Virus record (IMG/VR): IMGVR_UViG_3300033072_000326
Location: 1-64,000 of that record
Strand: one strand, 5' to 3'
DNA: 64,000 nucleotides
Source: a virus
Lineage: Duplodnaviria; Caudoviricetes
A program made the position numbers and the translations under genes. This document shows, piece after piece, positions 1,514 through 41,341 of this stretch; within the stretch, counting starts at the first letter, position 1; the number at the start of each line of letters is the position of its first letter. The notes under the pieces were generated by a model, which was not told the origin of the DNA, made no database searches, and was given only the letters and a program-made list of their open reading frames with translations.

Positions 1514-1726
1514 TCATTTCTGCCTCTCCTCCTGCACTGCAAACAAGCCTCGGACAAGGTTTGCATTGTAATCCATATGACTCACTGTTTCAACCTCTGC
1601 TTTACAGTTGTTACAACGTAGACACATCAACCCTTCTGCAATCAATTGTACCCCTCGCACAACCAATGGTGCATCATAGTACACTTCCACCATGTAACCT
1701 GCACTACACCGTCTGCATTTCCTCAT
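1514..1726 (-). CDS. YgiT/MqsA-type zinc-finger protein (70 aa), stand-alone antitoxin N-domain-like
   Basis: ATG at 1726 after AAGGAGAGAAG. Sequence MRKCRRCSAGYMVEVYYDAPLVVRGVQLIAEGLMCLRCNNC has CxxC...CxxC spacing and G-x-MV, D-x-P, RG, G residues like the MqsA N-terminal domain. Confidence 0.7.
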   Translation of the reverse strand: MRKCRRCSAGYMVEVYYDAPLVVRGVQLIAEGLMCLRCNNCKAEVETVSHMDYNANLVRGLFAVQEERQK

Positions 1727-1892
1727 TTCTTCTCTCCTTGTAAAATACACATACAAAAGCATGTGCAAATAGCGATTGCTGGCACAGAAACACCCCTTAG
1801 AGCGACGATTGGCCTGTTTGGCTCCGGTTATGCGTCACAGCTTTAAATTGACGCGTTTAAACGCTGTTTCTGCGGCTTCTAAGATAGTGTGC

Positions 1893-1921
1893 ATATTAAC
1901 ACATGTGCTCTCTGTTGTCAA
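1893..1921 (-). promoter_or_regulatory. sigma70-type promoter
   Basis: TTGACA-17 nt-TAATAT on the minus strand, upstream of the MqsA-like gene. Confidence 0.7.
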
Positions 1922-1923
1922 CA

Positions 1924-2388
1924 CTAAAGTTGGTACACAACGGATTGGTAGTGGGTGGAGTTGTCCTCGATAATCGACGAGATGATGTTCCAATCACCAT
2001 TAGCCAGTCCAGCACCAATCATCGGCATCACCACCTCAAACTGTCTGCCATGTTTACCACATCTCTCATTCAGGTTTTTGAAGCACTTCTCAACAGCTTC
2101 ATAACTAACATACACAACATTCTTATCCCTTCCATAAAACTCTTGTGTGAGCATATTGCAAACGACAATGTTTCCACGTCTACTATACACAACATCTCCA
2201 AGAGAGAAATCGGACGAGAAGTATTTTTCTCGGTAGTCTTCGTAAGCCCAAGGAAATTGTTTCTTTATGTGTAGGGCAACACCACTGCCCATCACGCCCT
2301 GCATGTTACACCCGTGGGCAAAAATCTTCAAGCTGTTCTCTGGGAATTGATGGGTGAACATGTCACCTTTTCTATATTTGATTTTCAT
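1924..2388 (-). CDS. Macrodomain (Appr-1-p processing / ADP-ribosylhydrolase-like) protein
   Basis: KGDMF...AHGCNMQGVMGSGVALHIKKQFP...MPMIGAGLANGDW are macrodomain hallmark motifs. Likely start is ATG 2388. Confidence 0.9.
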   Translation of the reverse strand: MKIKYRKGDMFTHQFPENSLKIFAHGCNMQGVMGSGVALHIKKQFPWAYEDYREKYFSSDFSLGDVVYSRRGNIVVCNMLTQEFYGRDKNVVYVSYEAVEKCFKNLNERCGKHGRQFEVVMPMIGAGLANGDWNIISSIIEDNSTHYQSVVYQL

Positions 2389-2460
2389 TTTCTTCTCCTG
2401 TAAAGCAAAAAGACACACAACGCCAGTATAGGAGATGTGTGCCAATGTATCAACTAATTT

Positions 2461-2631
2461 TTACAGAAAAGTCTCTTCACCGAGAACATGTGTCCAGATG
2501 CGAGTGTCTTCATCCCAATTGCCTAGGAAACCTAGTGGATTGATTCGATAAACTTCGTCGTCATCCACACGGGCATATGGTTTGCCGTTCAGATAGATAA
2601 TATCACCTTGTTTTGTGTATTGATCTTTCAT
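2461..2631 (-). CDS. Hypothetical protein (56 aa)
   Basis: ATG 2631 with AGGAGAA SD, abutting the clpP stop. Confidence 0.55.
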   Translation of the reverse strand: MKDQYTKQGDIIYLNGKPYARVDDDEVYRINPLGFLGNWDEDTRIWTHVLGEETFL

Positions 2632-2632
2632 T

Positions 2633-3373
2633 TCATTCTCCTTGTTGTGCTTCTGGTTTCTTACGACTACGTTTTGCGTATGGGGGAGGAACGCTACGCT
2701 TATCTTCTTGTGGGGCAAGCGATGAGGCTTGTTGTTCTGCTTCTTCTTGCTGTTCGTCAACGTCACATTGCCCACACTCACAACCTTGTTCCATCTCAGC
2801 AGCAAGAAGCTCATTGCGTTTCACGAAACGATCTACAAACTCTTCACTGGTGAGCCAGAAGTCACGTCCATTGATTAGCTGCTCAATCTCTTCGTCAGAC
2901 AGGAATAGTCGGTAGTGTTTACGGAATGTATTCTCCATGTATTTAATACCGAACGTAGATGCTGCTCGGAATTCTGCAAGTGTACCGCTTTCACCCAAAC
3001 TGCCACAATGCAGCATCACCATTGCATCTTCACTCAGTTCAAAATAAGTGCCAGCAAGGAGGATTAGGCTTCCTGCAGAAGCAATCAATCCGCTGCCAAT
3101 TACACCCACTTCAACACCACGCTCTTGTGCCCGTTTGATTTCAAACAGAAGCGTATCTGTTGCCAACAAACTACCACCAACAGAGGATAGGTTGATGCGA
3201 ACAATGTCGTCCTGTTGTGCAGCATTCAGCACTTCAATAACACTCAAGAAATCATTGCTGTCCTCAATTGCACCGAAAAGATACGCAGTGTATTCGTTGA
3301 TGATGTGTTGTTTGTGTGTAACAGCAAACGGCATATTGTTTGGTTGTACGTCCATACCAGATTTGAATTTCAT
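2633..3373 (-). CDS. clpP: ClpP-like protease proteolytic subunit
   Basis: INLSSVGG, IASAGS (catalytic Ser), VMLH (His), GRDFWLT (Asp). Confidence 0.85.
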   Translation of the reverse strand: MKFKSGMDVQPNNMPFAVTHKQHIINEYTAYLFGAIEDSNDFLSVIEVLNAAQQDDIVRINLSSVGGSLLATDTLLFEIKRAQERGVEVGVIGSGLIASAGSLILLAGTYFELSEDAMVMLHCGSLGESGTLAEFRAASTFGIKYMENTFRKHYRLFLSDEEIEQLINGRDFWLTSEEFVDRFVKRNELLAAEMEQGCECGQCDVDEQQEEAEQQASSLAPQEDKRSVPPPYAKRSRKKPEAQQGE

Positions 3374-4357
3374 TTAGTTCTCCTTATTTGCATAGTTTAG
3401 CAGGTTTGTGTATACACGCTCATCCAAGAGGTGTTTGAACTTTTCTGCAATCTCAGATACACGTTCTTTCTTTGCTTTTGTATATGCCGCAACAGCTTCC
3501 TCAACAGTATCATATTGACCTAGGTACGACTGCTTTAATTTCCCACCTTTAGTCAACTCCCCTCGTTGTATTTGCGCGATATATTTGCACTTGTCTTTGC
3601 AGAAGTGTATACCAACAGGTAGGTCATTATCACTAAGAGACTTATTACTACCAGTAAACAGTGAATTGACTTCCACGGGTACTAAGGTACAAAAAGAAGG
3701 CCCATAAACCCTGTTACCTTCCACAAGAAGGTCTTTGTCAACATGTAGCCCCTTACCTACATGAGGTTGTGAGTAGTACCATTCGGCAAAAACCTGAAAA
3801 TTATGCCATGCGGAATCCACCGTACAATCTTTGTAGGAGGTGCTACCTTGCTTCTCTCGCCATCCAGTGTTGTAGCACCTTTTCATGATACCTAGCCACA
3901 CCTCGTAAGCCTCTGAGTTTTTGCCAGATGAGTCCCGCGAAGGGTATGGTCCAACACCAAAATAGCCTACACCAGATGCTTTTGGACTAAAAGGGTCACG
4001 AATCGAACCCAACCTTACTGACTTAAGATCAGTTGTTGTTTCGTAACCGGTTGCAGTAAACCTTACCTTTACGCGAACACTGGATATGTATTCTAGTACA
4101 GTAAAATCCCCACATTGAACACTTTGCATTGTGCTACCAACCAATTCCTTTCTGATGCGTACTGAATCGCAGCTCCCGCAAGACTTGGAGTTTCCACTTC
4201 GAAGATTGGCAACAGGTACAACAAGCTCATTGCCACAATCACAAACTACCTTCCATTGTCGGCCTTTACTTCTGCCATTTACAATAAGACTCCCAGCCGG
4301 CTCTACGACTAGGAGGCTACCGAACTTTTTACCAGTAAGGTTTACTACAGCCCCCAT
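3374..4357 (-). CDS. Free-standing HNH-type homing endonuclease (modular)
   Basis: N-terminal TGKKFGSLLV...CDCG...SKSCG module. C-terminal W..IMKRCY...WHNFQVFAEW...VDKDLL...CTLVP module followed by an AP2-like YLGQYDTVEEA. Confidence 0.8.
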   Translation of the reverse strand: MGAVVNLTGKKFGSLLVVEPAGSLIVNGRSKGRQWKVVCDCGNELVVPVANLRSGNSKSCGSCDSVRIRKELVGSTMQSVQCGDFTVLEYISSVRVKVRFTATGYETTTDLKSVRLGSIRDPFSPKASGVGYFGVGPYPSRDSSGKNSEAYEVWLGIMKRCYNTGWREKQGSTSYKDCTVDSAWHNFQVFAEWYYSQPHVGKGLHVDKDLLVEGNRVYGPSFCTLVPVEVNSLFTGSNKSLSDNDLPVGIHFCKDKCKYIAQIQRGELTKGGKLKQSYLGQYDTVEEAVAAYTKAKKERVSEIAEKFKHLLDERVYTNLLNYANKEN

Positions 4358-4365
4358 GCGTCCTC

Positions 4366-5205
4366 CTATTTGTGGTAATACAGTTTTGCCAAAGCACGAG
4401 TAATGTCGTCACGCTGAATGTCATCGAACGTAAATTCCACTACACCTACGTTATTGTACAGCTCAGACAAGTCCTGTTGATCGAGATATTCTGGTTGTTC
4501 TCGCACAGCATTCTCAAGCATCGTGATGGTTTTACGCAAGCCACTCTGTTCAGAGATGTGCGCTTGACGTTCATCACCTGTACTAATCAGGCAAGCATTT
4601 TGACCAACTCGTGTCAGCACCATCTCATACTGATCTTCAGTCAGACCTTGGCACTCTTCCAGAATTACGACACAGTTTTCAAAAGAATAGCCACGAAGGT
4701 ATTCAATACTTGCCAACTCGATAATCTTCTTGTCTAGACAATACTTAGTGAAACCCTTTCCCAGAAACTTCTCTAGGTGGCAGATTGTCTGTCCGAACAA
4801 AATCAGAAGCTTGGCGTGCAAATCCCCCGGTACAGCGCCATGACTCTTGCCACAAGACACGTTAGGACGTAGCAAAAACACTTTCTCTGTTTTACGTTCT
4901 TTAAGCATTTGTGCTGCATGATAGGCTGCAACGATCGATTTACCTGCCCCTACTGCGCCGATCCCCCAGATTAGTTTACGCCCTTCCCGCATGTAACGTA
5001 GGAAGCGTTTCTGATTATCAGATCGTGGATGGAACTCCATGCCTTTTTCCGGCATGTAGATTTCTTCTACAGCAAACTTCTCTTTGTGCGTAGCTGGAAT
5101 GCCGTTCTCCAGTTTAGCAGCTCGTGTCTTGCGAGCTTTACGTGCCTTACGTGGACGAACGATAGATTCGTCAATACCCATTTCAATCTCTTCTTCATAT
5201 GTCAT
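4366..5205 (-). CDS. phoH: PhoH-family ATPase
   Basis: Walker A GAVGAGKS, YLRGYSF, ILEECQ, GDERQ. Likely start is ATG 5205. Confidence 0.9.
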   Translation of the reverse strand: MTYEEEIEMGIDESIVRPRKARKARKTRAAKLENGIPATHKEKFAVEEIYMPEKGMEFHPRSDNQKRFLRYMREGRKLIWGIGAVGAGKSIVAAYHAAQMLKERKTEKVFLLRPNVSCGKSHGAVPGDLHAKLLILFGQTICHLEKFLGKGFTKYCLDKKIIELASIEYLRGYSFENCVVILEECQGLTEDQYEMVLTRVGQNACLISTGDERQAHISEQSGLRKTITMLENAVREQPEYLDQQDLSELYNNVGVVEFTFDDIQRDDITRALAKLYYHK

Positions 5206-5251
5206 TTGTTTCTCCTTTTGTTTTAGACAGCAAATAAGTGCCAACGTTTTG

Positions 5252-8200
5252 CTATTTACTTTCAATGTCATATTTGAAGTCAAAGTCAAAGACACCTGAT
5301 GCTTTCTCTACTGTTTCAGTATACGCCTTCTCGGCACACTTTTGTATTGCTGCGATATGTCTACAGAATAAATCCTGCTCGCTTTCAGGCCAGTCATAGA
5401 AACCTTTTGGTTTCTTTACTTCAACACTGATATAAGATTTAAAACTCATTCGTATTCTCCTTACTTCTTAACAGGCTTTGGCAAAAGTGGAACTTGTTTC
5501 ATATATTTCACCCCGCTATTTAGCATTTTTACTTGTCACTGGTAAGAGTGCAAATTCTACGTCAAAGTTTGGATTGAAAATATCAACTCTACCACACCCG
5601 TATTTACTGATTGCCCACACTAATTTATTCCTTGGGGCAGGGTTTTCAGGTGTGGGTTTGATGGTGTGGTACGGATGCTCTAGGTGTTTTGTTGTTGCAT
5701 GAAATACTTTAAATTCCATTTTCTTCTCCTCAAGAAATAGGCTGCCAATGAGACAGCCCTTGTTTTATGTTACATTAGGCATAACATACAGTTTAGCATC
5801 TTTGCCTGTATTCTCTTTAAATGCAGCCTTAAACGAAGGGATAAAAGCAATATCTTCGTCAGTTATTTCATTAAAAGTGTAATAGCCTTGGGCTACAACA
5901 AATCCAACCACACTATCAGAGTAGTCTGCATCGTAGTAAGGGCTGATACGGTCAAAAACACCTTCGTAGTTTTCGTAAAAGTCGCTACTGTCTTCACACA
6001 CCTCATCGAATGGCAAGCCGACAACAAGAACACCACTAATACTCATACCCATGTTATTTCTCCTCAGCAGCTTTACGACGTGGCGGAATACGTTTTGTTT
6101 GTTGTGCCTGCTCCAACACTTCTGGAGCAAACTCTGGTGTATTTGTATCTGGCTTCACAAGAGTCACAGCATACATATTACCGAAGTTATGTGCTGTGTG
6201 TGCTACATTTTCATTATCAAGCTCCCAGCCTTCTTTTGTCATACGGACAATTTCTTCTGTAAATTGTGCCAGAGAGGGTGTTGCAATTTGAAATGTTTGT
6301 TTCATATCAATTCTCCTTAGTCTGTTTCAGTGTTTGTGTATATTAACACATTTCCTATTTGTTGTCAATCAATTTATATGCATTTGCTTTAACATATTCT
6401 GACATGTGTTCTTTGAACAACACAACAGACATAGCTTTAGCAAATGTCATTGCGTGAATAATGGAATGCATTACAAGTCGTCCTCCGTTTCTAGTTGTTT
6501 ACGATAGGCTTCAAGCTGTTCCTCATATTCTTCAATGAATAAGATGTCTTGTTGAATATAATCTAGAATGTTCTGCATTGTCAACATGTGTTTATATGCA
6601 TGACTATCTTCTTCCAGCTCAAAATCATCAATAATGCTTTGTGTACTTGCAATACTTTCTTCCAAAGCCTCTGCATATTGTTTAAGCTGAGACAACGATG
6701 TGTTGATGTATTTAGTGGGCATTTATTTCTCCTTGTCTCTCACTGTATTCATAATCCACTCTTGAACGTCTGTATCATCAAAACATTTATCATACATCCA
6801 TTCAATGTGCGGTATCATACGTTCTAGCTTTTTCAAGCATCCGCCTTTACTCTTGTATGTACAACGTAAAAGTCGAGCCTCAGTCATAACTATATTACCA
6901 ATACCTTGAAAATTTACATTGACTTGATTAAATTTCTTTTTGGTTATAAACGCTTTTGTTATATAAAACCACCAATAACCTGTAACTGTATATTGAGGAG
7001 GGCAACAATTCAATATCCATCTTGTCTGTCCTTGCCTTACTTTCTTAGGCATTTTTCTCTCCTTTGTATATGAGTGTGACACCAAAAACTTCCACCTGAA
7101 TTCTACCACCCATCTTCACAAGATTACCATTTGTGTAAGGGAGCAGTGTTGGATGAGAGACAATTCCAACAAAATCTTTACGATTTAATACCACCTGATC
7201 TACACCTACTACAAACAAATCAATCAAATATGTTGGATAGGGATAACGCGTGTAATCATACATCACCTGTCCGGTGGAGCTGCTGATTGTTAAGTATTTT
7301 ACAGCCTCTTCGTTAGTCATGCTGTTCCTCCTCCAAAGAAAAATCCAATAGGTTTGTGGCATCGCCGTACATGGCACAAATCATCTCTTCATGACAAGAA
7401 CGAATGTTCTCAAGCCATTTAAGCATTTCTGTTTCTGTCTTTTGTTGTTTGTGCAGCTCTTTCAGACGACCTTTGACATATTCAACAAATTCCATACTCC
7501 TCTCATACGCGAACTTATCATTCTTGTTATAAGCTAATGTTGCATTGTCTTTACTCTTTTCCAGCAGATTTACATCCATTGAGATAAAACGCTTACGCTT
7601 CTCAATAGAGCTTTGCAGGTGGCGAATAAATTTCTCTACGTGTTTCATTACATAATCCTTTCAATCATTTTGACATTTTCAGAGCGGTCAGACAGAACAA
7701 ATTCTGTGGCTTCATAGCTTGTCTCAAAGAACACGAGCCACTGCTCAAATATTTCAACAGCATTTGAACTTGTGCGTCTTTCTTGGTCTTCAATATCAAC
7801 CCACCAATCTTCGTCCACTTGCTTTACAATGCGAAGTTCATTTTGCCAGTTTCGCCATACAAAATAGCTCATTATTTCTTTCTCCCTTTAATAGAAAACT
7901 TCTCAAGCTTACTTGAAAGTAGTATTGCAATGCCATTACCCATAGCTGAAATATTTAAGACAGGGATTAGTGCCAAAAGAATGAGATTGACAATTACATG
8001 TCCCGTAATATTCTCACCAATCCACCAATTCCCTACTAGAACGCCGACATTCCAAACCAAACACACTGCACATGAAACTAAATAGGCAATACCAAGGTTG
8101 TTGAGATATGTTGCAAATTCTTCCATTACGTCTCCTCCACAAATTTAGACAGGAATGCAATTATAGCAAAAGCTGCCTCTTTGTCAATATCAATTGTTTC

Positions 8201-8759
8201 ATCTGGGTAGTGATCGAACATATTAATCAGTTCACAATCTACCTTCCCATTCCAATGTGTAATTTCTAGCTTGCAACTGTGAGATAGCTCTAGTGTCTCG
8301 ACTTTTGGCGGTGTGTAGTTATTCATTTTCCTCTTCTTATTCAATAGTGTTGCACTGTTCCACACTCATATCCCTACGAGCACGGGCTACAACCATTTCA
8401 TCTCCTTGTTTAAAGCCAAAATTCTTTGCAGCTTCTCCAACAACAAGATTGATGTTGATAATTTCAGAATACACAGAATAGGCTATGGCAATTGTCCTAC
8501 CATCAGCGTTACGTGCTTTAGCCAACGACAGAATGTGATTTGTGTCGTTGTCTTTCCCTTTCAAATAAGCATCAAAGCCAAGCTGTGTTCCGTTAAGACA
8601 TTGCTGTTTTGTTGTAGGAGCATATAACATTTCTTTCTGTGTGTCAAGCTTTTCTTTAGCCTCTTGTAGTTGTGAATATAAAACACCACTGCCAATGATG
8701 GAGACACAAGACAGTGTAACACAACCAACAAGCAGTGTGTCAATTAGTTTCTTGTTCAT
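5252..8759 (-). CDS. Cluster of small hypothetical proteins (5252-5449, 5516-5719, 5765-6130, 6054-6305, 6471-6722, 6723-7109, 7045-7377, 7313-7648, 7648-7872, 7872-8126 membrane, 8126-8365, 8337-8759 N-terminal TM)
   Basis: Contiguous or overlapping minus-strand ORFs, most with AGGAG(A) SD; no recognisable catalytic motifs. Confidence 0.6.
6340..6368 (-). promoter_or_regulatory. sigma70-type promoter
   Basis: TTGACA-17 nt-TAATAT. Confidence 0.7.
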
Positions 8760-8770
8760 TTTTCAACCTC

Positions 8771-9397
8771 CTAAGCGTATGGGTCTACACTGATTTCAAC
8801 TTCTGCCCCAATTATAGCATTTTGCACAGATTCGTCAAATAGTTTTCTACCAGATCGTTTGTGAAACAAGAACTCGCCTGAACTGTCCTTGTACGAATAT
8901 GTCACAGACAACACTTTACCTTTTTCTGTAAGCTTACCACTGATCTTGAAATACACGCGTTTTGTACCGCAACTCACCAACAGTGTAAAACCATTCTCGT
9001 CGCACATCTTACGAATCTTACGGTAGAGCGTTGTAACCCTCTCGCACAACACCAAGTTGATAGCTTCTTTTGGGGCTATATCCACAACGCCTGTCAACTC
9101 ACCTTCTGGAATTGCCTTGTTCAAAACAGGTTTGTGCTTGTTAATCAACTGCAACTCATACAAGTCCATGTCAACACGTGAATTCATCACTTCAATCTTC
9201 ATGCTGTCAGCAAACAGCCACTTGTCAAGGTTTAGATGTGTGTTCAATCTTGTCCAAATGGAATTTGTTTTACCTACATATACAGGCACACCAGCACTGA
9301 AGAAAGTGTAAACACAAGGTGCATGTTTGTCAACACACTTGAGTTTGCACAGATCATTCCACGACGCATAATTGAGGATTGGAAAAGCTAGTTTCAT
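8771..9397 (-). CDS. GIY-YIG nuclease-family protein
   Basis: CVYTF...VYVGKT...RLNTH...E...INKHKPVLN pattern. Confidence 0.75.
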   Translation of the reverse strand: MKLAFPILNYASWNDLCKLKCVDKHAPCVYTFFSAGVPVYVGKTNSIWTRLNTHLNLDKWLFADSMKIEVMNSRVDMDLYELQLINKHKPVLNKAIPEGELTGVVDIAPKEAINLVLCERVTTLYRKIRKMCDENGFTLLVSCGTKRVYFKISGKLTEKGKVLSVTYSYKDSSGEFLFHKRSGRKLFDESVQNAIIGAEVEISVDPYA

Positions 9398-9405
9398 GTT
9401 GTCTC

Positions 9406-9888
9406 CTAAAATGGTAAATCTGGGTCTTCATCAAGGTTATATTGTGGTTTTGTCTCCACAACAGTTTTCTTTGTTTTGTGTTTACTCCTGTCCTCAACTT
9501 CTGACAGCATGAATTCAATGTGAGACTTTGGCATGTCCTTATTGAACACAAACTCAAACAAACTGTCGTCAGTTAAATCTAGCACTTCGTAAGAGTTACT
9601 TACAATAAAGCCTGTCATTTTCTTTTGTTTCTTAATCAAGATGCCAGCCTTGCTCAGCTTGGACACAAACTTTTCCACAGCCGACACAGAAACATCGCAA
9701 CGCATTGCAATATCTGCTTGATTATGGAAAAACTCGTTCCCTTGCTCTTTCAAGTGAGCATACTGCGAGTAGCACCAGTTGTAAAGTGCTTTGTCAACAA
9801 GAGATAGTGGTATGGTTTCACCTGTGCTCTTAACAATCACCGCTTGTGCTGCTGCCAGAGCGTAGCTGGCTCTCATGAATGGTTTCAT
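9406..9888 (-). CDS. Winged-HTH DNA-binding protein, replication-initiator-like
   Basis: FFHNQADIAMRCDVSVSAVEKFVSKLSKAGIL...SNSYEV resembles the HTH_36/DnaD/lambda-O-like N-terminal wHTH; acidic tail DEDPDLPF. Confidence 0.65.
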   Translation of the reverse strand: MKPFMRASYALAAAQAVIVKSTGETIPLSLVDKALYNWCYSQYAHLKEQGNEFFHNQADIAMRCDVSVSAVEKFVSKLSKAGILIKKQKKMTGFIVSNSYEVLDLTDDSLFEFVFNKDMPKSHIEFMLSEVEDRSKHKTKKTVVETKPQYNLDEDPDLPF

Positions 9889-10021
9889 TTACGTTTCCTG
9901 TAGTTTCTTTCAGTGTAAACAGTGCTTTCACAACAAAAGCCTCTCGGCTCCTGTCCCCACGTTGTTCATCTACCCATGCAAGTAGATGGCGTGGCAATAC
10001 AATCCGCATTCCGTTAGTCAT
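9830..10021 (-). CDS. Ribbon-helix-helix (CopG/Arc-like) protein
   Basis: MRIVLPRHLLAWVDEQRGDRSREAFVVKAL fits the beta-helix-helix RHH pattern. Confidence 0.6.
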   Translation of the reverse strand: MTNGMRIVLPRHLLAWVDEQRGDRSREAFVVKALFTLKETTGNVNETIHESQLRSGSSTSGDC

Positions 10022-10238
10022 TTTCTAGGTCACTCATTCGTTGTTGAACTTTCTCAAGTTTAACACACTCACGAGCCATGTCAATCTTTTTTACAACTTC
10101 TTTGTGTCCACGTTGTTTGTGGTATTGACGCATCCGGCTGATCTGCCCTGTTGGGCATTTCTTGACGTGCTCAATCATCTGCTCAAGTGAGCAATTGTTG
10201 TAATCAAACATGTGTTTCCTTTCATTCAGTTTGTACAT
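10014..10238 (-). CDS. Hypothetical protein
   Basis: First ORF after the 10241-10269 promoter. Confidence 0.55.
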   Translation of the reverse strand: MYKLNERKHMFDYNNCSLEQMIEHVKKCPTGQISRMRQYHKQRGHKEVVKKIDMARECVKLEKVQQRMSDLEND

Positions 10239-10240
10239 CC

Positions 10241-32172: not shown

Positions 32173-32181
32173 GGAGATAGG

Positions 32182-33234: not shown

Positions 33235-33956
33235 TGTCCTACCTGCATTCAATTGCCGCTGGTTGGATGGTGAATAAATACACGTCTATGCCTGCAAAGG
33301 TGGTGAGATTTGATTTTGAGAACCAGTGTGTAGATATCATCCCTTGGATTAATGTAGTCGATACAGGCACTAATGATGAACTACAGCGACCTATGGTGGC
33401 AGCTGTGCCTATCTTGTTTCCTTGCTCCAGTACCAGCGCAATTACTTTCCCAATTAAAGAGGGTGACTTTGTTTTAGCTGTTTGGTCAATGCGTGCTGTT
33501 GATTTGTGGAAACAAAATGGCTCTTCTTCTCCAACAGACTTTCGAATGTTTGACATTCAAGATGCATTTGCAATCCCTTGTACATTCCCGCGTGACCGAG
33601 CAAAGACGAGACACGGACAATCTCCTGACGATTTAGTGTTGGTGCATAATATCGGTGGTAGTCAGAATGAAATTCATCTGAAAGCCAATGGAGACATTGT
33701 AGCAAGGAGCCCTACAACATTCAAGGTGGAATGCTCTGAGTTTGTTGTAGATGCTTCTAACGCAACAATCAATGCTCCAACAGCCGTGAATGGAACAGCA
33801 TCAATTAGCGGCAAGACAACAATGTCTGCTGGCTTTGACAGCAATGCGGCTTCCACTGTAACTGGTGGTATTGGTATTGACGGAATCCAATTTGGTGATC
33901 ACAGACACCATTACGACGATGATGGTAATGATGAAATTACGGGAGTACCTGTTTAA
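33234..33956 (+). CDS. Baseplate central spike (gpV/Gp138-like)
   Basis: PILFP...FPIKEGD...RMFDIQDAFAIP; C-terminal HRH metal-binding motif. Confidence 0.85.
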   Translation: MSYLHSIAAGWMVNKYTSMPAKVVRFDFENQCVDIIPWINVVDTGTNDELQRPMVAAVPILFPCSSTSAITFPIKEGDFVLAVWSMRAVDLWKQNGSSSPTDFRMFDIQDAFAIPCTFPRDRAKTRHGQSPDDLVLVHNIGGSQNEIHLKANGDIVARSPTTFKVECSEFVVDASNATINAPTAVNGTASISGKTTMSAGFDSNAASTVTGGIGIDGIQFGDHRHHYDDDGNDEITGVPV

Positions 33957-34321
33957 TGGACATTCTACTGATTAAAGAAACAGGTGATGCTGCCTTCCAG
34001 AATGGAGCAATTCCAGTAACAGATGAAGCAAGACAGAGTGTTGCACAGCGATTGACAATTCTTTTGTCTACATTCAAAGCTGAGTGGTTTATAGATCAAG
34101 ACTACGGCATCGACTACATTGGTCAAGTAATGGGACGTAAGCGCAGTAAGAGTGCAATTGATACATTGTTCCAATCTGCTATCCTCTCTGAACCACTCGT
34201 TAAATCCATTGCTTCATTCTCTTCTGATATTGGCAGCGATAGAAAATATTCTGTTACATTCACAGCTATTACAGACACAGGTGAAATAACAGAGCCTATA
34301 ACAATTAACTTAGGACTCTAA
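33956..34321 (+). CDS. Baseplate wedge (gp25-like/DUF2634)
   Basis: VAQRL...FKAEWFIDQDYGIDY. Confidence 0.8.
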   Translation: MDILLIKETGDAAFQNGAIPVTDEARQSVAQRLTILLSTFKAEWFIDQDYGIDYIGQVMGRKRSKSAIDTLFQSAILSEPLVKSIASFSSDIGSDRKYSVTFTAITDTGEITEPITINLGL

Positions 34322-34322
34322 T

Positions 34323-35768
34323 ATGGCAGGAATCACAGAGCAAGGGTTTGACATTAAACGCCTTGACACTCTGCTAGCAGAAAGACGAGCGCAAGCTGTA
34401 GCTCTGTTCCAAGAGCTTGTTCCAGAGGGTGAGGTGGTGGATACATCCAACTCTTCTCTTCTAGGACGATTGATTGCTCTCGTCACTCCTTCTGAAGCAG
34501 ACCTGTGGGAAGCAATGCTTTCTACATACCAATCTTTTGACCCTGAACAAGCCTTTGGTGTTTCTCTGGATAACATTGTAACACTGTCTGGTTTGACACG
34601 ATTTGCAGCTAAGGCAACAACAGCTCAATGTCTGTTTGAAATTGCTCCAGCAACAACGCTGACAACAGCACAGCAAGTGAGTAGTAGTGTTAGTGGGAAA
34701 CGCTTTGCTCTTACAGAAACTGTTACATTCTCTCTTGCAGCAGCTAGTTCTGTCAAGATTGTTGTTCCAACAATTAGCAATTCCACAACATACAGCGTTG
34801 CATATAAAGCTTCCGGTACAACAGATTCCCCAACTGTACGTTCTTATACATCCGATAGTTCTGCAACACAAGACGAGGTGTTGAATGGCATTGTAGCCGC
34901 TTTTGCTTCAGATGCATCCTTTACGGCTACGCGAGATGGTACAACCATTTACATTAAAGCCAACGACCCTCTGTTGCGCCGTGACTTTACGCTTACCAAC
35001 ACAGCAGCTTCATTCGTATTCCGCGTAGCCACTGTTGAGTGTACAGAAACTGGCATTGTAGAGCAAGCTCCAAACACCATTGCAACGATTGATACACCTG
35101 TTATTGGTTGGGCAAGCGTAAACAACCCAGTTGCAGCTGTTGTTGGTAATGATTTAGAAACAGACGAAGAGTTGCGTCTACGCTTCAAACAGAACAAAGC
35201 ACGTAGTTCTACAGGCACTGTAACAGCTCTTTATTCTGCTTTGACAGCTCTTGACAGCGTAGCAGAAGTTAAGGTGGTAGAGAACGATACAAACGCAACA
35301 GACAGTAATGGTCTGCCTGCTAAATCGTTTATGTGTATTGTGGATGGCGGTAATAGCTCCGACATTGCTAATGCAATCTGGCAGAAGAAACCAGCTGGCG
35401 TGTTGGCTTATGGGAATACATCTGTTTCTGTCGTAGACAGCCAAGGCTTTAGCCATAACATCAGCTTCCAACGTGCAGCTGATGTGAACGTGTATATTGA
35501 TCTGAACATCTCCACATACACTGGCGCTCCACCAACAGCTGTTGCAGACATCAAGGCTGCTCTTGTTGCTTATATTGATGCGCTGAAGATTGGTGATGAT
35601 GTTGTTTACTCACGCCTATTCACACCTATCAACACTGTTGCTGGCGTTCAAGTGAACAGCATGTTCATTGGTACAAGTGCAAGTCCAACAGGTACGGCAA
35701 ACATTCCTGTGTCTCTGACACAAAAAGCATTCACACAAAATACATTCATCACCATCACTGTTGTGTAA
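34323..35768 (+). CDS. Baseplate J-like protein
   Basis: GNDLETDEELRLR, IWQKKPAGV, IGDDVVYSRL. Confidence 0.88.
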   Translation: MAGITEQGFDIKRLDTLLAERRAQAVALFQELVPEGEVVDTSNSSLLGRLIALVTPSEADLWEAMLSTYQSFDPEQAFGVSLDNIVTLSGLTRFAAKATTAQCLFEIAPATTLTTAQQVSSSVSGKRFALTETVTFSLAAASSVKIVVPTISNSTTYSVAYKASGTTDSPTVRSYTSDSSATQDEVLNGIVAAFASDASFTATRDGTTIYIKANDPLLRRDFTLTNTAASFVFRVATVECTETGIVEQAPNTIATIDTPVIGWASVNNPVAAVVGNDLETDEELRLRFKQNKARSSTGTVTALYSALTALDSVAEVKVVENDTNATDSNGLPAKSFMCIVDGGNSSDIANAIWQKKPAGVLAYGNTSVSVVDSQGFSHNISFQRAADVNVYIDLNISTYTGAPPTAVADIKAALVAYIDALKIGDDVVYSRLFTPINTVAGVQVNSMFIGTSASPTGTANIPVSLTQKAFTQNTFITITVV

Positions 35769-35777
35769 GGAGAGAAT

Positions 35778-36500
35778 ATGGCTCTGAACACATTTAACAA
35801 GGTGGAATACTATGATGAAGCCAAAACACGGTATACAGATTTCCTAACAGATAAGCCCGTCTTTGATAAGTATGTACAGCTGATGTTGAACGAGAAAATC
35901 AACATTCAAAAAGCTATGCAAGACTTGATGCAACTGAGAAGCTTGGACACAGCCAAAGGTGTTCATCTTGACAATATCGGTAACATTGTTGGACAAGAAC
36001 GCATTCTAGTTGACACTGGACTGTACATATATTTCGGTTGGGAAGAAGACCCTACAGCTGGTACTTGGGCTGATGATAATGTTCCCTCTTCTGGTTATCA
36101 ATGGATTAGTGAAGATACAGCAGAAAATCTCACAGACTTTGTTTACATTGATGATGATACATATCGTTTGTTCATTCGCAGTAAAATATTGAAGAACATC
36201 TCAGGTATTAGTCCAGAAGAAATTATTCAATTCTTCAATTTCCTCTTCAACACCACATCTACAAAACTGACAGAACTTTACCCTAACACCTGCATTATTG
36301 GTATTGGTAAAGAGTTGTCATTCCAAGAAAAACAATTCCTCAATTACAGCGTTGCCAATCCATCCTATTCAGATAAGTTGTTCCCAAAACCTGCCGGTGT
36401 TAGCTTTCAATTCCTAGAGCTACAAACTCCGTTCTTCGGTTTTGCAGGGACGACAGGTGCTGCTGGGTTTGGTGTTGGTAAGCTTTCGGGAGCTATTTAA
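35778..36500 (+). CDS. Baseplate wedge (DUF2612-like)
   Basis: LDTAKGVHLDNIGNIVGQER, DDDTYRLFIRSKI, PKPAGV. Confidence 0.8.
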   Translation: MALNTFNKVEYYDEAKTRYTDFLTDKPVFDKYVQLMLNEKINIQKAMQDLMQLRSLDTAKGVHLDNIGNIVGQERILVDTGLYIYFGWEEDPTAGTWADDNVPSSGYQWISEDTAENLTDFVYIDDDTYRLFIRSKILKNISGISPEEIIQFFNFLFNTTSTKLTELYPNTCIIGIGKELSFQEKQFLNYSVANPSYSDKLFPKPAGVSFQFLELQTPFFGFAGTTGAAGFGVGKLSGAI

Positions 36501-37351
36501 TGGCAGAGACAAGTAAGCCAAGTTATGCATACACATGGGCGTCTGGTGGTGATAAACAGACGCTTACACAAACAATCATACAACAAGGTTGGACAGTAGC
36601 AAAACCTTCTTTCCAACGCGCAAATGCTGTCGAGAGTCGTCAAGACTTGATGCTCCAACACATCGACCAACATGGTGTTCCGGTTTGGAGCAGTGACACA
36701 GAGTATTTTGCAAATAAGAGTTGGGTGACAGGCAGTAATGGTGAACTATATCGGGCTGTAGCCGACTCCGTAGGCGTAAACCCTGTTGGGGATACAAGCA
36801 ATAAATGGTATCGTGTACTAGATGAATTCTTCACTAAGACACAATCCGACGCCCGTTATCTGGGGTTAGCTGTCCCTAGTGGTGCAGTATTTCACTTCGC
36901 TATGCAGACAGCTCCGGCTGGCTATTTGGTATGTAACGGCGCTGCCGTGTCTCGTGCAGCCTTCCCAGCTCTGTTTGCTGCTATTGGTACATTGTACGGC
37001 AACGGTGATGGTAGTACAACATTCAATCTCCCTGATTTACGCGGGGAGTTTATTCGTGGTGTTGACCTTGGGAAAGGTATAGACAGCGGTCGAGTGTTTG
37101 GTAGCAAGCAAAAAGGCAGTTTGGTGGGAGGTTATGACGACAACAGCACTGCCTCCGATATTGCACCTCTTCCTAACAAAGCAACAAACGATTACGGCAC
37201 AGATACTTTCCTACCCTCCGATTACGGTATCACTGCTGTTGGGTACGGTAGTGTAGTTGGGGGAGGTACTTATCCTGTTACACAAGCAAACAGCTGGTAT
37301 GGTGTTACTAGACCAACCAACGTGGCGCTACTTCCGTGTATTAAGGTGTAA
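36500..37351 (+). CDS. Tail fibre 1 with collar domain
   Basis: PAGYLVCNGAAVSRAAFPALFAAIGTLYGNGDGSTTFNLPDLRGEFIRG collar motif; TRPTNVALLPCIK terminus. Confidence 0.9.
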   Translation: MAETSKPSYAYTWASGGDKQTLTQTIIQQGWTVAKPSFQRANAVESRQDLMLQHIDQHGVPVWSSDTEYFANKSWVTGSNGELYRAVADSVGVNPVGDTSNKWYRVLDEFFTKTQSDARYLGLAVPSGAVFHFAMQTAPAGYLVCNGAAVSRAAFPALFAAIGTLYGNGDGSTTFNLPDLRGEFIRGVDLGKGIDSGRVFGSKQKGSLVGGYDDNSTASDIAPLPNKATNDYGTDTFLPSDYGITAVGYGSVVGGGTYPVTQANSWYGVTRPTNVALLPCIKV

Positions 37352-37357
37352 AGCAAT

Positions 37358-37795
37358 ATGGATGCACTACTGGCAACTCTAACACCAGAAACACTGGATG
37401 TTGTATTTAAATACGGTGGTGCATCACTGTTTCTTCTGATTATCTTCTACTGGCTTGCAAACAACTTGAAAATGAGTATGTTTGAGCAGGGGATGAAACA
37501 GGATGCATATACAGCTTTAACAAAACAGCTTACAGATTTACGGGAAGATTTTGATAAAGAGCGGGACAAGCTCGAAGAAGCTTATAAGCAACGTAATGAA
37601 GCCATTTCAGAGCTGAAGAAATGGCAAATGCTTGCCGAACGAATGGAAGTGGAGATGCAAGAGATGAAGGAAGAGCTTCGCGCTAATAACGAGTTTATTC
37701 GTGAAGTGTTGAACTCCATATATGTATTTGCAGCAACGCACCCCCAAGAGGCATCTCTTTTACATATCCCTGTGCTTCCACAGAAAAACAAATAA
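37358..37795 (+). CDS. Single-TM coiled-coil protein
   Basis: One hydrophobic helix (GGASLFLLIIFYWLA) followed by a long heptad-like region. Confidence 0.65.
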   Translation: MDALLATLTPETLDVVFKYGGASLFLLIIFYWLANNLKMSMFEQGMKQDAYTALTKQLTDLREDFDKERDKLEEAYKQRNEAISELKKWQMLAERMEVEMQEMKEELRANNEFIREVLNSIYVFAATHPQEASLLHIPVLPQKNK

Positions 37796-37804
37796 GGAAT
37801 AAAT

Positions 37805-39064
37805 ATGGCAGACATTCAAAAACCTGACATGGCAAAGACATGGGCAAATGCGGGAGATAAAACACCGCCTGCTGATAGCTTAATCAATACTGGTTGGAAT
37901 AGTGGAGATATTCCGGCAAATACTGATTTTAACTTTATTGATGCACGCCAAGATCAGGGTGTTGCATATATGTTGCAAAAAGGTATTCCCGAGTGGGATA
38001 GTGCAACTGAATATCAGGCAAATAAAAGTTGGGTGCAATATGGTGGTAAAATTTATAAGGCAATCCAAACAGGTGTAAACAAGCAACCAAATACACAGAC
38101 AGCTTACTGGCAGGATGCCACTTTCAGCAACGTCACCGCCCCTGATGTTGACCCGTCTAGGAAGCTCCGAGTGGTTGCCGGTGTACTTAGGAATACTGGT
38201 ACTGGCTGGGATTGGATTAATAATAGCGGACATACACCCGTAGGTTTTGGTGCCGTATCTGTCGTTGGTAATGCTATACGTGTAAATTACACATTTACTG
38301 CTAATAAAGTAGTGTCCTTGGTTGTATGTCCTGATGAGACATTTGCTCTCCAAGGATTATCTTGTGGTGCCAGTGTAGGTACGACTTATTCCGACATCTT
38401 CTTGGCTGCTCCTCTGAAATTTACAGTGGACTGTGCTACCAATGCAGTAATATCGCCAGATATTTTCTCCGGTCTAGTAACCTCAAGCAATGCATCTGGT
38501 GTCACTACCATCTCCCACCCTTCGTGTACAGCAAACTATGCACCATCTTCATCGCAACTTCGGAAGACAAACGGGGATATGGGGCTGTACCCAACATTTG
38601 GTTATGCTAGTAATGCCACATATATAGAGCACAATACTGGCTTGTCAGGCTTATATCAATATAGCAGTGGTTGGGCACTTTTTACAGATATAGACACAAC
38701 AAGACATCCATTTACTGCAACATGGAATGCGGTAGCAGGTGCTCTGGATATAACCCACCCAGCATGTGGTAATAATTACGATATCCAATTAACATCTCGT
38801 GGCACGCTTATCCCAGTCATCTCCTCCACAGCAGGTACTTTTGATAAGACAAAGTTTCGTGTTGAGTTTTACGACTACGCCGGTGTTAAAGTTACAGCAC
38901 AATCTTCTGCTATGAATTTTTCATTCGCAAGACAAGCAGTTTGTCGTTCTCTAACTGTGTCAAATGGCCTTTACTCTATAGATAGAGGTTATGCAACATT
39001 AGACCCATCGCAATTGGTATCCAGCACAGGAAACCTGTGGGTGTACGGTATTATGGAGGTATGA
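37805..39064 (+). CDS. Tail fibre/spike 2
   Basis: N-terminus (KPDMAKTWANAGDK...GIPEWDSATEYQANKSWV) parallels fibre 1; distinct C-terminal domain. Confidence 0.8.
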   Translation: MADIQKPDMAKTWANAGDKTPPADSLINTGWNSGDIPANTDFNFIDARQDQGVAYMLQKGIPEWDSATEYQANKSWVQYGGKIYKAIQTGVNKQPNTQTAYWQDATFSNVTAPDVDPSRKLRVVAGVLRNTGTGWDWINNSGHTPVGFGAVSVVGNAIRVNYTFTANKVVSLVVCPDETFALQGLSCGASVGTTYSDIFLAAPLKFTVDCATNAVISPDIFSGLVTSSNASGVTTISHPSCTANYAPSSSQLRKTNGDMGLYPTFGYASNATYIEHNTGLSGLYQYSSGWALFTDIDTTRHPFTATWNAVAGALDITHPACGNNYDIQLTSRGTLIPVISSTAGTFDKTKFRVEFYDYAGVKVTAQSSAMNFSFARQAVCRSLTVSNGLYSIDRGYATLDPSQLVSSTGNLWVYGIMEV

Positions 39065-39065
39065 T

Positions 39066-39500
39066 ATGACAACTAAAAAACAATTCACCCTATCTGAGCG
39101 TTCTATCAAATCCTTGACGGGTGTAGACAAACGCCTTCAAGATGTTGTAAAACTGGCTCTATCTTATAGCACAGAAGACTTCTTTGTCAACGAAGGGAAG
39201 CGTTCTGTCGAACGGCAACGTCTCCTTGTCTCTCAAGGTGCAAGTAAGACAATGAACAGCAAACACATTACAGGCCATGCTGTCGATTTGGTTCCTGTTG
39301 CTGTCAAAGGTGTTATTCCTTGGAACGACAGTAAGAAGTTTGACGCCATTGGTAAGGCGATGTTCAAAGCGGCAGCAGAACTTGGTGTTAAGATTCGCTG
39401 GGGTAAGGATTGGAATGGGAACGGTATTGCGGACGAGAAGTTTGTAGACTCTCCTCATTTCGAGTTGCTTGACACAGCAACATTCCAGAAGGGATTTTGA
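39066..39500 (+). CDS. Endolysin, M15 L-Ala-D-Glu peptidase
   Basis: EGKRSVERQ, SKHITGHAVDLVP, RWGKDW, DSPHFEL. Confidence 0.92.
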   Translation: MTTKKQFTLSERSIKSLTGVDKRLQDVVKLALSYSTEDFFVNEGKRSVERQRLLVSQGASKTMNSKHITGHAVDLVPVAVKGVIPWNDSKKFDAIGKAMFKAAAELGVKIRWGKDWNGNGIADEKFVDSPHFELLDTATFQKGF

Positions 39501-39503
39501 ACG

Positions 39504-39695
39504 ATGACTAAGTTACAGCGAATGAAGCAGCATTGTATTGACTTGCTTGCTGAAGCCAGTACATGGCGTTCTCTGATGTTCTTTGCTGCTTTGGCTTGTG
39601 GACATAACCTAGATTGGCCTGAAGAACAGCAACTATTTGTTGCAACATCAGCTGCCTATGCTATTGGTTTGTTCTTCAAGGACAAGACAAAATGA
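39504..39695 (+). CDS. Holin candidate
   Basis: 63 aa with two short hydrophobic segments, between endolysin and spanins. Confidence 0.6.
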   Translation: MTKLQRMKQHCIDLLAEASTWRSLMFFAALACGHNLDWPEEQQLFVATSAAYAIGLFFKDKTK

Positions 39696-40027
39696 ACTTC
39701 ATGACGGAGGGTTTGTACAAGGCTGTACCTGCCCTTCTCATTGTCATTGCTCTGTTTGCTTCAGGGTGGATGGTGAGAGGGTGGAGTGATGCTGAAGAGA
39801 ATAGGCAGCAAGAACAGGCTATTGCAGAGAAACGCATTGCTATTGAAACAATGTCTAAAGATGTTCTTGTGCAGCTTAAAGATACGTTGTCTAACATTGA
39901 AAAGCAAGGTGTTAAAGAGCGTACAATTATTCAGAAGGAAACAGAGAAGCCAGTTTACAAACAACAATGCATTGAACAAAGCGGTATGGACATGGTGAAT
40001 AACATGGCGAAAGGAACGGGCAAATGA
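39692..40027 (+). CDS. i-spanin (Rz-like)
   Basis: N-terminal TM, coiled coil, C-terminal EKPVYKQQC. Confidence 0.8.
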   Translation: MNFMTEGLYKAVPALLIVIALFASGWMVRGWSDAEENRQQEQAIAEKRIAIETMSKDVLVQLKDTLSNIEKQGVKERTIIQKETEKPVYKQQCIEQSGMDMVNNMAKGTGK

Positions 40028-40302
40028 AACAACTTCTTCTTGTGTTCTCCATGCTGCTGTTGTCTGCATGTGCTACACAACGCGTTGTTCTTCCCCCTGA
40101 AGTGTTTAAGCAAGAAATGACGCAAATGTGTGAGCCACAACTTGCACAGCTTCAAGGGAAAGATGGAAAGGCTGTTATGGTGACATTTCAGCTTTGGCAC
40201 GAAAGCTACAGGCAATGTGAGGCTTTGAACAATAGCAAAGCTCAATACATGCTCAAGCTGCAAGAGATTTTTAAACAAAACAACAAGCTGTTTGAATATT
40301 AA
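40024..40302 (+). CDS. o-spanin (Rz1-like lipoprotein)
   Basis: Lipobox LLSAC, with two further Cys. Confidence 0.8.
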   Translation: MKQLLLVFSMLLLSACATQRVVLPPEVFKQEMTQMCEPQLAQLQGKDGKAVMVTFQLWHESYRQCEALNNSKAQYMLKLQEIFKQNNKLFEY

Positions 40303-40336
40303 ACAAAGCCCCTCCGTAATTGGAGGGGCATTTTCC
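40301..40336. terminator. Bidirectional terminator at convergence of arms
   Basis: GCCCCTCC-GTAATT-GGAGGGGC flanked by A-rich (left) and T-rich (right) tracts. Confidence 0.8.
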
Positions 40337-40349
40337 TATTGTTTAAATT

Positions 40350-41174
40350 TTAAAAGGACAGGTACACAAGAAGCCAACCAAGTGTCAGGGCGAGCGGAAC
40401 TTGCCCTGTGGTCTGAATTGCCTCTTCACCTGACAACTCACCTTTAACCTTTTGCCAGATATTGTACAAACTCATGTGATGATGAACAAACAGCATTTGG
40501 AAAAGAGACAGAAGGCCAAACATTTCCCAGAATGTAGGGACATACCATCCAAACTTCGCTGCTGCAATTGCATAAGCTTTCAGTGTAATCCACGGGTTGT
40601 AAAAGATTGAGCCAATGAAAATTGACAATACAATAAGTGCTACTACGATATTTGCCTTGTTTTCTTTCATTCTTCTCTCCTTACAGACCAGCCAGTGTAG
40701 CGGCTTCGTTAATCAGCGCCTGTTGCGTCTTAGCTTGAGACTTGGCGTACAAACTTAGAGATTTCTTCAGTGCCTTAATTTGATTCTTATGTTCCTTCTT
40801 GTCCCAACCCAATGTTTCAATAAGTGACTCAACCTCGTCCTTCTGGAGTTGCTTAGTTTTGTCAATATCTCGTTGACTCTGGTTATATGCAGCTCGTGCT
40901 GCTTTGTACAGTTCCAGTTGATGCGGATTCAGCATTACAGCAAAGTTCAGTTCGTTCATTGTGTTTCTCCTTCTTAGTTGTTAATAATTTGTTTCAGACG
41001 AGCTGCAATATCGAGGGCTTTGAAATCGTCACCTACAGACATACCCATCTCAAAAGCATCATCGTAATTACCACTGTCCCAATACTGAAGTTCACCGTTC
41101 TCGTATTGTTCCAGCATTTCATCGTCAACACCGTTAAGTAGTTCATCAATCAGGGCTTGGATTTGGTCTTTCAT
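40350..41174 (-). CDS. Three small proteins (40350-40670 membrane; 40681-40959 helical, DsbA/GapR-like?; 40974-41174 acidic)
   Basis: ORFs with AGGAG SD; functions not established. Confidence 0.6.
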
Positions 41175-41176
41175 GA

Positions 41177-41341
41177 CTATTTCTCCTCTATATTAAAAGT
41201 AAAACTACCAGTAGCATTCTTACGAGCATTGTACGCTTTGTAAACTTCTACAACATGCTCATTAGGCGCTGGTGGATTATCAATCAACTCCTGCACGAAG
41301 TCAACATCTTCTTGCGTTAGTTTCAAGTTAATATCTTCCAC
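41177..41341 (-). CDS. 54-aa peptide resembling TacA/DUF1778 antitoxin C-terminal domain
   Basis: Manual translation MEDINLKLTQEDVDFVQELIDNPPAPNEHVVEVYKAYNARK..., GTG start after AAAGGAGAG; below the ORF-track cut-off. Confidence 0.65.
   Translation of the reverse strand: MEDINLKLTQEDVDFVQELIDNPPAPNEHVVEVYKAYNARKNATGSFTFNIEEK

Follow-up and report, generated by a model that had tools for sequence, protein, structure and literature searches.

Phages counter toxin–antitoxin (TA) defences with several kinds of encoded factor that neutralise the toxins released during infection, including T4 Dmd, TifA, ICP1 Gp145/AdfB and the pseudo-ToxI RNA. Counter-defence by orphan antitoxins has so far been established for enzymatic antitoxins (AdfN and AdfM) and for unrelated mimics. 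AdfN (T4 gp30.3), a NADAR orphan antitoxin directed against DarTG1, is a damage-reversing enzyme, the neutralising part of a host antitoxin kept by the phage without the remainder, and the AdfM proteins T4 Tk.4 and PhiKZ gp104 are experimentally proven anti-DarTG2 factors (PMC13716836; PMC13309987). The AdfN paper describes type II orphan antitoxins as hard to find and expects them to be narrowly specific, and a review of phage countermeasures from November 2026 includes no type II antitoxin fragment carried by a phage. Here, we describe three genes in a 64,000-nucleotide stretch of viral DNA (hereafter the window), which forms the first 64 kb of the 88,042-bp IMG/VR virus record IMGVR_UViG_3300033072_000326 (Duplodnaviria; Caudoviricetes), each of which resembles the toxin-neutralising part of a different TA family:

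1514..1726, minus strand: open reading frame A (ORF-A), a 70-residue MqsA N-terminal zinc-ribbon domain, identified by sequence profiles and an AlphaFold2 fold
1924..2388, minus strand: ORF-B, a 154-residue macrodomain of the T4 Tk.4/AdfM type (PHROG 335), identified by Pfam, PHROG and BLASTP
41177..41341, minus strand: ORF-C, 54 residues with a GTG start, corresponding to the betaB-alphaC-PPAP-alphaD segment of TacA/KacA/AtaR, identified by profile searches

A first-pass annotation made from the letters of the window had proposed these three resemblances, and all three homologies hold. The reading that we consider probable is that the three are early, orphan antitoxin-like genes under host-type promoters whose products neutralise TA defences, acting as decoys that keep infected cells from shutting down. 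ORF-A would bind MqsR-type RNase toxins released when an MqsRAC-type system is triggered, ORF-B would strip the ADP-ribose that DarT2-like toxins place on phage nucleic acid, and ORF-C would wrap GNAT aminoacyl-tRNA acetyltransferase toxins of the TacT/KacT/AtaT type. Toxin binding, neutralisation and a resulting benefit to the phage are plausible on the sequence evidence set out below.

The closest described system for ORF-A is the toxin-antitoxin-chaperone system MqsRAC (E. coli C496_10), which was found by Vassallo et al. to shield E. coli from phage T2, a protection that is abolished by extra chaperone; the antitoxin of such systems is unstable unless the chaperone holds its C-terminal chaperone-addiction element (PMC9519451). 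When ORF-A was scored alone, it matched Pfam MqsA_antitoxin with an expectation value (E) of 0.067 (13.7 bits against a cut-off of 30) and NCBIfam TIGR03830 with E 0.0018 (18.1 bits against 61.8, model positions 1–55 of 127); scores below these whole-protein cut-offs are expected, since ORF-A covers half of the model. In a sequence search of the PDB, MqsA chains were the sole matches (E 0.008; 0.002 with a profile). Single-sequence word-indexed protein searches returned near-identical proteins only, a tblastn search of 50,697 phage records with ORF-A found nothing at E <= 1, and PADLOC offered no model matching ORF-A, ORF-C or the MqsRAC toxin and antitoxin. A close homologue (P0003, 73 residues; 77% identity over 61 BLASTP-aligned residues) was found on a related 91-kb phage contig, and a profile built from the two sequences retrieved 13 further proteins from 1.84 billion representatives (E 1.5e-10 to 5e-4). 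Nine of these 13 are 199–225 residues long and align to ORF-A through their residues ~5–70; all seven of the nine that were scanned match Pfam MqsA_antitoxin (46–60 bits against 30) and consist of a zinc ribbon, a helix-turn-helix (HTH) domain and a C-terminal extension of ~70 residues.

The alignment of ORF-A with these relatives defines both what has been retained and what is missing. The four cysteines C4, C7, C38 and C41 (CxxC ... CxxC) vary little or not at all, several core residues are invariant, and ORF-A ends at residue 70, exactly at the inter-domain linker where the HTH starts in full-length MqsA, so that both the C-terminal XRE-type HTH and the C-terminal chaperone-addiction extension are lacking. 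The AlphaFold2 model reached a predicted local distance difference test (pLDDT) score of 96.1 with the 14-sequence alignment and 46 with two sequences. In a Foldseek search of the PDB, its five best matches were all MqsA (E 7.8e-5 to 0.011), followed by the next at E 0.3. A VIA structural search against representatives ranked MqsA first (Z 9.6 and 7.5), then ZifS (5.2), with the rest at or below 3.6. One of the structural matches is the MqsA N-domain chain crystallised with the toxin MqsR (3HI2), the fold being that of 3GA8/3HI2. A still shorter stand-alone MqsA-N-like protein of 65 residues (P0010; L019:1544-1741 and L020:745-942; E 5e-6 to the ORF-A profile) was found on short metagenome contigs, adjoining a YqeY-like gene, and represents a further truncated form.

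Two of the full-length relatives (P0004 and P0006), whose gene neighbourhoods were read, are each encoded by the middle gene of an operon of the form MqsR_toxin - MqsA - SecB-like. The upstream MqsR_toxin gene scores 36.2 bits against a cut-off of 26.2 on contig L017 and is weak on L015 (14.3 bits, E 0.057), and the downstream SecB-like gene scores 27.5 bits against 26 on L015 and less on L017; the SecB-like proteins are recognised by the PADLOC chaperone model PD-T4-9_C. On one side of the P0004 operon are GpU and GpD, tail genes of P2 type, and on the other an Ogr-type gene, with an Abi_alpha gene adjoining; around the P0006 operon are different P2-type phage genes (Phage_CP76, S24 peptidase). 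By gene content, both are assigned to MqsRAC-type toxin-antitoxin-chaperone systems in the variable regions of P2-like prophages, and the antitoxins P0004 and P0006 each possess the C-terminal chaperone-addiction extension. Most of the MqsRAC-type antitoxins in the alignment (P0004–P0016) end in -AA or -VA, recalling ssrA-like ClpXP degrons, a feature that would agree with the ClpXP dependence reported for chaperone-addicted antitoxins. While ORF-A shares the zinc-ribbon fold and sequence of the MqsA N-domain, it differs from MqsA of MqsRA/MqsRAC in lacking the HTH, the chaperone-addiction extension and an adjacent MqsR or SecB-like gene, and in being encoded by a lytic phage. The absence of the chaperone-addiction element and the HTH is the basis for proposing that ORF-A would bind the toxin independently of the chaperone and without binding the operator. 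If it works in this way, ORF-A would provide a simple bypass of toxin-antitoxin-chaperone immunity, being a binder without the very element whose degradation fires the system.

The second putative toxin binder, ORF-C, corresponds to the opposite end of an antitoxin. In KacA, residues 52–86 (betaB, alphaC, the PPAP linker and alphaD) wrap the toxin KacT through hydrophobic contacts of W61, V64, A67 and I68 and a hydrogen bond from P72 (PMC6698736). ORF-C aligns to residues 53–85 (or, more narrowly, 55–83) of KacA and places V13, V16, L19, I20 and P24 at the contact positions, so that the hydrophobic face of alphaC and the PPAP motif are kept. On its own, it scores 15.1 bits against Pfam TacA1 (PF08681; cut-off 21) over model positions 47–77 of 80, and nothing in it matches model positions 1–46; it starts at the equivalent of betaB and is devoid of the N-terminal ribbon-helix-helix (RHH) domain. 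A PDB search with ORF-C alone retrieved the 36-residue TacA3 peptide 7ak9_C (2.3e-4) and the full TacA3 chain 7zg5_C, with which it has the motif DNPPAPNE in common. In the PDB, a five-sequence profile matched DUF1778 antitoxins alone, and always at their C-termini (2.8e-8 and 5.4e-8 at best; AtaR, KacA and 1Y9B at 5e-4 to 5e-3); its top matches include the 36- and 46-residue antitoxin C-terminal peptide chains 7ak9_C and 6gtq_C, which were crystallised bound to their toxins. Searched against a database of 5.8 billion proteins, the same profile retrieved full-length PF08681 proteins of 88–107 residues with E values down to 5.9e-7; most of the 91 matches carry PF08681, and their sequences agree. 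Judged by alignment, ORF-C thus contains the complete toxin-binding module but no part of the RHH.

Stand-alone proteins of this kind are not confined to the window. Orthologues of 54 residues occur in related phages (74% identity), among which the 17 extra C-terminal residues of ORF-C are conserved, and ORF-C-like orphans of 46–69 residues occur in other phages. More distant stand-alone homologues are found in Yersinia phage vB_Yru_GN1 (62 residues) and in the Burkholderia jumbo phages BcepSauron and BcepSaruman (48 residues); the GN1 and BcepSauron proteins (P0017, 21.8 bits; P0018, 26.3 bits) clear the Pfam TacA1 cut-off of 21 and cover only positions 44–79. The ESM Atlas contains clusters of TacA1-like proteins of 45–66 residues, the score of 0.82 making these a lead only, and a scan of genome contigs with the ORF-C profile yielded a single degenerate DUF1778 remnant in Hephaestia caeni. 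ORF-C therefore resembles TacA/KacA/AtaR in their toxin-wrapping region, including the DNPPAPNE that it has in common with Salmonella TacA3, but differs from them in lacking the RHH and an adjacent GNAT gene and in carrying the 17 additional residues. If it acts as proposed, ORF-C would give a first direct handle on GNAT-type tRNA-acetylating toxins as phage defence, and a natural minimal inhibitory peptide. The natural role of GNAT-DUF1778 modules is debated; if the proposal is true, a TacA-C-only family in several unrelated lytic phages would imply that such modules are anti-phage in nature.

ORF-B matches Pfam Macro (30.7 bits, above the cut-off of 22), PADLOC DarG (2.3e-13) and NCBIfam DarG (3.2e-11, over positions 1–139 of 338), in both DarG models within the macrodomain part only, and it lacks the C-terminal DarT-binding domain of DarG2. 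Against PHROG 335, ORF-B scores 6e-46, compared with 1.3e-65 for T4 Tk.4 and 8e-43 for PhiKZ gp104. It is 35% identical to T4 Tk.4 over the full length (BLASTP E 4e-18) and 22% identical to PhiKZ gp104, and tblastn detected homologues in 2,621 of the 50,697 phage records (~5% of sequenced phages). The active-site Asn of DarG2 is retained (N28 in ORF-B, N23 in PhiKZ, N22 in TaqDarG), whereas the catalytic Lys (TaqDarG K80, PhiKZ K78) is replaced by Q82/E83 in a "TQ" motif; T4 Tk.4, a proven AdfM, also lacks this Lys and has the same "TQ". The best relatives of solved structure are BT1257 (2e-15), SCO6735 (5e-11), Poa1p (6e-8) and TARG1 (1e-6), followed by DarG (2e-4). An assignment as a true DarG orthologue was rejected on the grounds of the missing catalytic Lys, the missing C-terminal domain and the closer similarity to BT1257 and SCO6735. 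The earlier description of ORF-B as a DarG-like macrodomain is therefore correct as to the macrodomain family, with homologues proven to act against DarT, but has to be amended in that ORF-B is an ordinary member of PHROG 335, with T4 Tk.4 and BT1257 as nearer relatives than DarG itself. ORF-B resembles AdfM as a full-length homologue consisting of a single macrodomain without a DarT-binding domain; it is distinguished from the PhiKZ protein by low identity and the Gln/Glu in place of Lys. On these similarities, it is assigned to a family with proven orphan-antitoxin activity and represents already known biology.

A rival explanation is that the three proteins are generic domains with other jobs: ORF-A a zinc-ribbon adaptor or regulator, ORF-B an ADP-ribose or ADP-ribose-1''-phosphate enzyme or an eraser directed at other systems (such as CmdTAC-like mRNA modification), and ORF-C a helical motif for a partner other than a toxin. 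It draws on the "phosphatase" annotation of PHROG 335, on the nearest solved relatives and the altered active site of ORF-B, on the next structural match of ORF-A being ZifS, a small zinc-finger protein, and on the occurrence of a TacA-like motif within a 445-residue membrane protein of another phage (L006:2140-3477), which indicates that other uses of the motif are possible. Of these points, the nearest solved relatives and altered active site of ORF-B and the motif in the 445-residue protein also weigh against a role of the three genes in TA counter-defence, as do several others. The closest full-length MqsA relatives of ORF-A are only 31–41% identical to it and come from contigs of ~53–55% G+C content (GC), compared with 42% GC for the phage, and type II antitoxins are usually specific for their cognate toxin. 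Literature searches found no phage-defence role for GNAT-DUF1778 systems. The substitution rates considered below come from single pairs of short genes, and the promoters are sigma70 consensus matches only. Against the generic-domain explanation, ORF-A matches MqsA specifically (VIA Z 9.6 compared with 5.2) and its sequence relatives are all MqsA-family antitoxins, the significant relatives of ORF-C are all DUF1778 antitoxins aligned at the toxin-contact segment, and anti-DarTG2 activity is proven for two proteins of the ORF-B family. We regard this explanation as unlikely, although it is the most serious of the rivals.

The 445-residue protein itself combines N-terminal membrane helices and a coiled coil with a DNPPAPNE motif, and scores 19.5 bits against TacA1 at residues 281–317; shorter versions of 51–106 residues (P0025–P0028) occur in metagenomes.

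The first-pass annotation had further stated that no cognate toxin is present and that two of the genes head sigma70 transcription units. Searches of the whole 88-kb record for DarT, MqsR, Acetyltransf_1 (PF00583), Acetyltransf_7 (PF13508) and NADAR gave no match at E <= 1; the GNAT control searches were positive in 14 of 14 genomes, and the MqsR negative is less reliable because the MqsR control (PF15723) did not flag E. coli. The immediate neighbours of the three genes are not toxin-like, ORF-A being flanked by the macrodomain gene and a gene for a 49-residue membrane protein. Sigma70-like promoters are present before all three genes rather than two, each gene is preceded by a good Shine-Dalgarno sequence, and the four-gene unit headed by ORF-C ends at a terminator-like hairpin:

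1893..1921, minus strand: sigma70-like promoter TTGACA-17-TAATAT (with TG), heading the ORF-A unit
2425..2453, minus strand: sigma70-like promoter TTGATA-17-TATACT, heading ORF-B
41395..41423, minus strand: sigma70-like promoter TTGACA-17-TAAGAT, upstream of ORF-C
40308..40329: bidirectional terminator-like hairpin ending the four-gene unit headed by ORF-C

Conservation bears on a second rival, namely that the genes are decaying, functionless remnants of TA modules once carried for addiction or superinfection exclusion, which have lost their toxins and DNA-binding domains. Full TacA-GNAT pairs do occur on viral contigs: in L029 (2320-3141) and L031 (2309-3126), a full-length DUF1778 antitoxin gene overlaps a GNAT gene as a canonical pair. 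Constraint is also relaxed in the C-terminal tail of ORF-A, where most changes lie; the pairwise ratios of nonsynonymous to synonymous substitution rates (dN/dS), each from a single pair of short genes, are 0.53 overall for ORF-A and 0.37 for ORF-C, compared with 0.09–0.11 for neighbouring control genes. Against decay, the frames are intact in at least two to three related phages at 74–77% identity with starts and ribosome-binding sites (RBSs) conserved, neither the zinc ligands nor the core residues vary, a strong promoter-like site and an RBS precede each gene, the proteins are truncated at domain boundaries and not at random points, and short TacA-C-only forms recur in unrelated lytic phages. 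As far as these comparisons reach, ORF-A and ORF-C appear constrained yet faster-evolving, with intact frames, and conserved rather than decaying, and we consider the remnant explanation very improbable, the least probable of those discussed here. As an observation in its own right, the pairs in L029 and L031 indicate that DUF1778-GNAT modules travel on (pro)viral DNA.

If the three genes do serve to neutralise TA defences, a wider generalisation presents itself, namely that lytic phages make anti-TA weapons by trimming type II antitoxins to the toxin-binding module, giving an MqsA N-domain without the HTH and without the degradable, chaperone-dependent tail that triggers MqsRAC defence, and a TacA C-peptide without the RHH. 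We hold this generalisation tentatively, its chances being a little short of even. The earlier proposal, that antitoxin genes are captured and their autoregulatory domains deleted, is supported in part: the MqsA-like protein lacks its HTH and the TacA-like protein its RHH, but DarG has no DNA-binding autoregulatory domain to delete. Both an origin by capture followed by deletion and a decoy function of the fragments are hypothetical. The suggestion that other small ORFs might be further mimics was not borne out, as 43 other small ORFs of the early/middle region, scanned against Pfam at E <= 0.01, matched no antitoxin family and yielded only DUF6945, DUF551, DnaD_N, winged-helix and similar domains. 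Compared with AdfN, which likewise represents only the neutralising part of an antitoxin, ORF-A and ORF-C would act by binding toxins stoichiometrically, as derivatives of type II antitoxins, rather than by reversing damage enzymatically. Unlike Dmd, TifA and Gp145/AdfB, which are not recognisably derived from a cognate antitoxin, they are clear homologues of antitoxin domains; pseudo-ToxI, which does mimic the antitoxin ToxI, is an RNA, whereas ORF-A and ORF-C are homologues of protein antitoxins. The MqsA-N and TacA-C orphans add new forms to a known strategy; their homology is well supported, and a role as decoys is plausible.

ORF-A and ORF-B lie in a part of the record that is represented twice. 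The record begins with 76 nt identical to positions 84,560–84,635 and ends with 77 nt identical to 5,633–5,709, and the segments between are collinear (1–739 with 84,560–85,313, 89% identity; 1723–1921 with 85,309–85,507, 91% identity; 2399–2463 with 85,522–85,590; and 5453–5709 with 87,786–88,042), the Clp-like and PhoH genes being diverged alleles between the two arms. Collinearity combined with exact identity at the ends is what a de Bruijn-graph bubble leaves when it is unrolled into a single contig, and the record probably holds two co-occurring haplotypes of a genome of ~82–85 kb that is circular in the assembly graph. A terminal repeat was considered for the repeated 200-bp stretch and rejected, given that identity is only 89–92% and exact overlaps of k-mer length are found solely at the two ends. 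The CheckV rating of the record as "71% complete, linear" may be misleading in view of the bubble. The features of this region are as follows:

1..5709: arm A of the assembly bubble, collinear with record positions 84560-88042 (arm B), with boundaries at the exact 76- and 77-nt identities
740..1722, minus strand: ORF-A cassette of 983 bp (ORF-A and genes for a 49-residue membrane protein, a 110-residue protein and a 70-residue acidic protein), absent from arm B
1727..1892, minus strand: 166-nt leader with RBS, 91% identical to the arm B leader (record 85313-85478), which drives a different gene there
1922..2398, minus strand: macrodomain gene cassette (RBS and ORF), absent from arm B, where two promoters lie 14 nt apart

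The junction of the ORF-A cassette falls exactly at the start codon; in arm B, the same promoter, leader, RBS and ATG lead straight into a paralogue of a 136-residue gene. The macrodomain gene and the ORF-A cassette are thus accessory cassettes, present or absent as precise indels between two co-assembled haplotypes, and such gain and loss at promoter-proximal slots is as expected of counter-defence cargo. This presence/absence polymorphism also provides a natural comparison pair. In the relative L009 (a 91-kb phage contig), ORF-A lies in a different neighbourhood, with no macrodomain in the 20 kb read and with a 139-residue NADAR protein (L009:3223-3642) that has the fold of the anti-DarTG1 factor AdfN.

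Because the record holds both arms of the bubble, it is the assembly that links ORF-A and ORF-B to ORF-C. The co-occurrence might accordingly be in part an assembly artefact, in which two strains were merged, the three genes are perhaps not carried by one genome, and a dispersed "arsenal" is overstated. The exact 76- and 77-nt end identities, the collinear arms with 89–92% identity in parts, and the location of ORF-A and ORF-B in arm A and of ORF-C in the common part are what such a merger would leave. On the other hand, the record joins arm A directly to the common part, ORF-A and ORF-B are neighbours within one arm regardless, and orthologues of both ORF-A and ORF-C are very probably present on a related ENA contig of 91,263 bp, as each of the two proteins was traced to an ENA contig of this length. 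We consider the artefact improbable, only slightly less so than the remnant explanation.

Beyond these genes, the window contains a plus-strand structural and lysis block bordered by minus-strand early and DNA-metabolism genes (PhoH, Clp-protease-like, ribonucleotide reductase and others). The ribonucleotide reductase gene provides the only similarity to sequenced phages (63–66% nucleotide identity), its best matches being mostly Vibrio phages of 110–137 kb, and nucleotide searches of window positions 1–6000 against GenBank phages gave no match. The shared 166-nt leader had no match in Rfam; it folds at ~-44 kcal/mol, a strong hairpin lying immediately ahead of the RBS, and the hexamers of its promoter recur at 6368–6340. 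A homing-endonuclease-type gene lies between the PhoH and Clp-like genes in the variable arm (window 3374–4357; record 86327–86920): the arm B gene encodes HNH_3 and AP2 domains, the same slot in arm A holds a different gene of 327 residues, and a gene of this type may account for the strong divergence of the flanking PhoH and Clp-like alleles. Directly downstream of ORF-C, a gene at 40974–41174 encodes a very acidic protein of 66 residues (~16 Asp/Glu compared with 4 Lys/Arg) of no family, and a different acidic protein of 52 residues occupies this slot in the relative L005, so that the position may be another variable counter-defence slot, encoding, for example, a DNA mimic.

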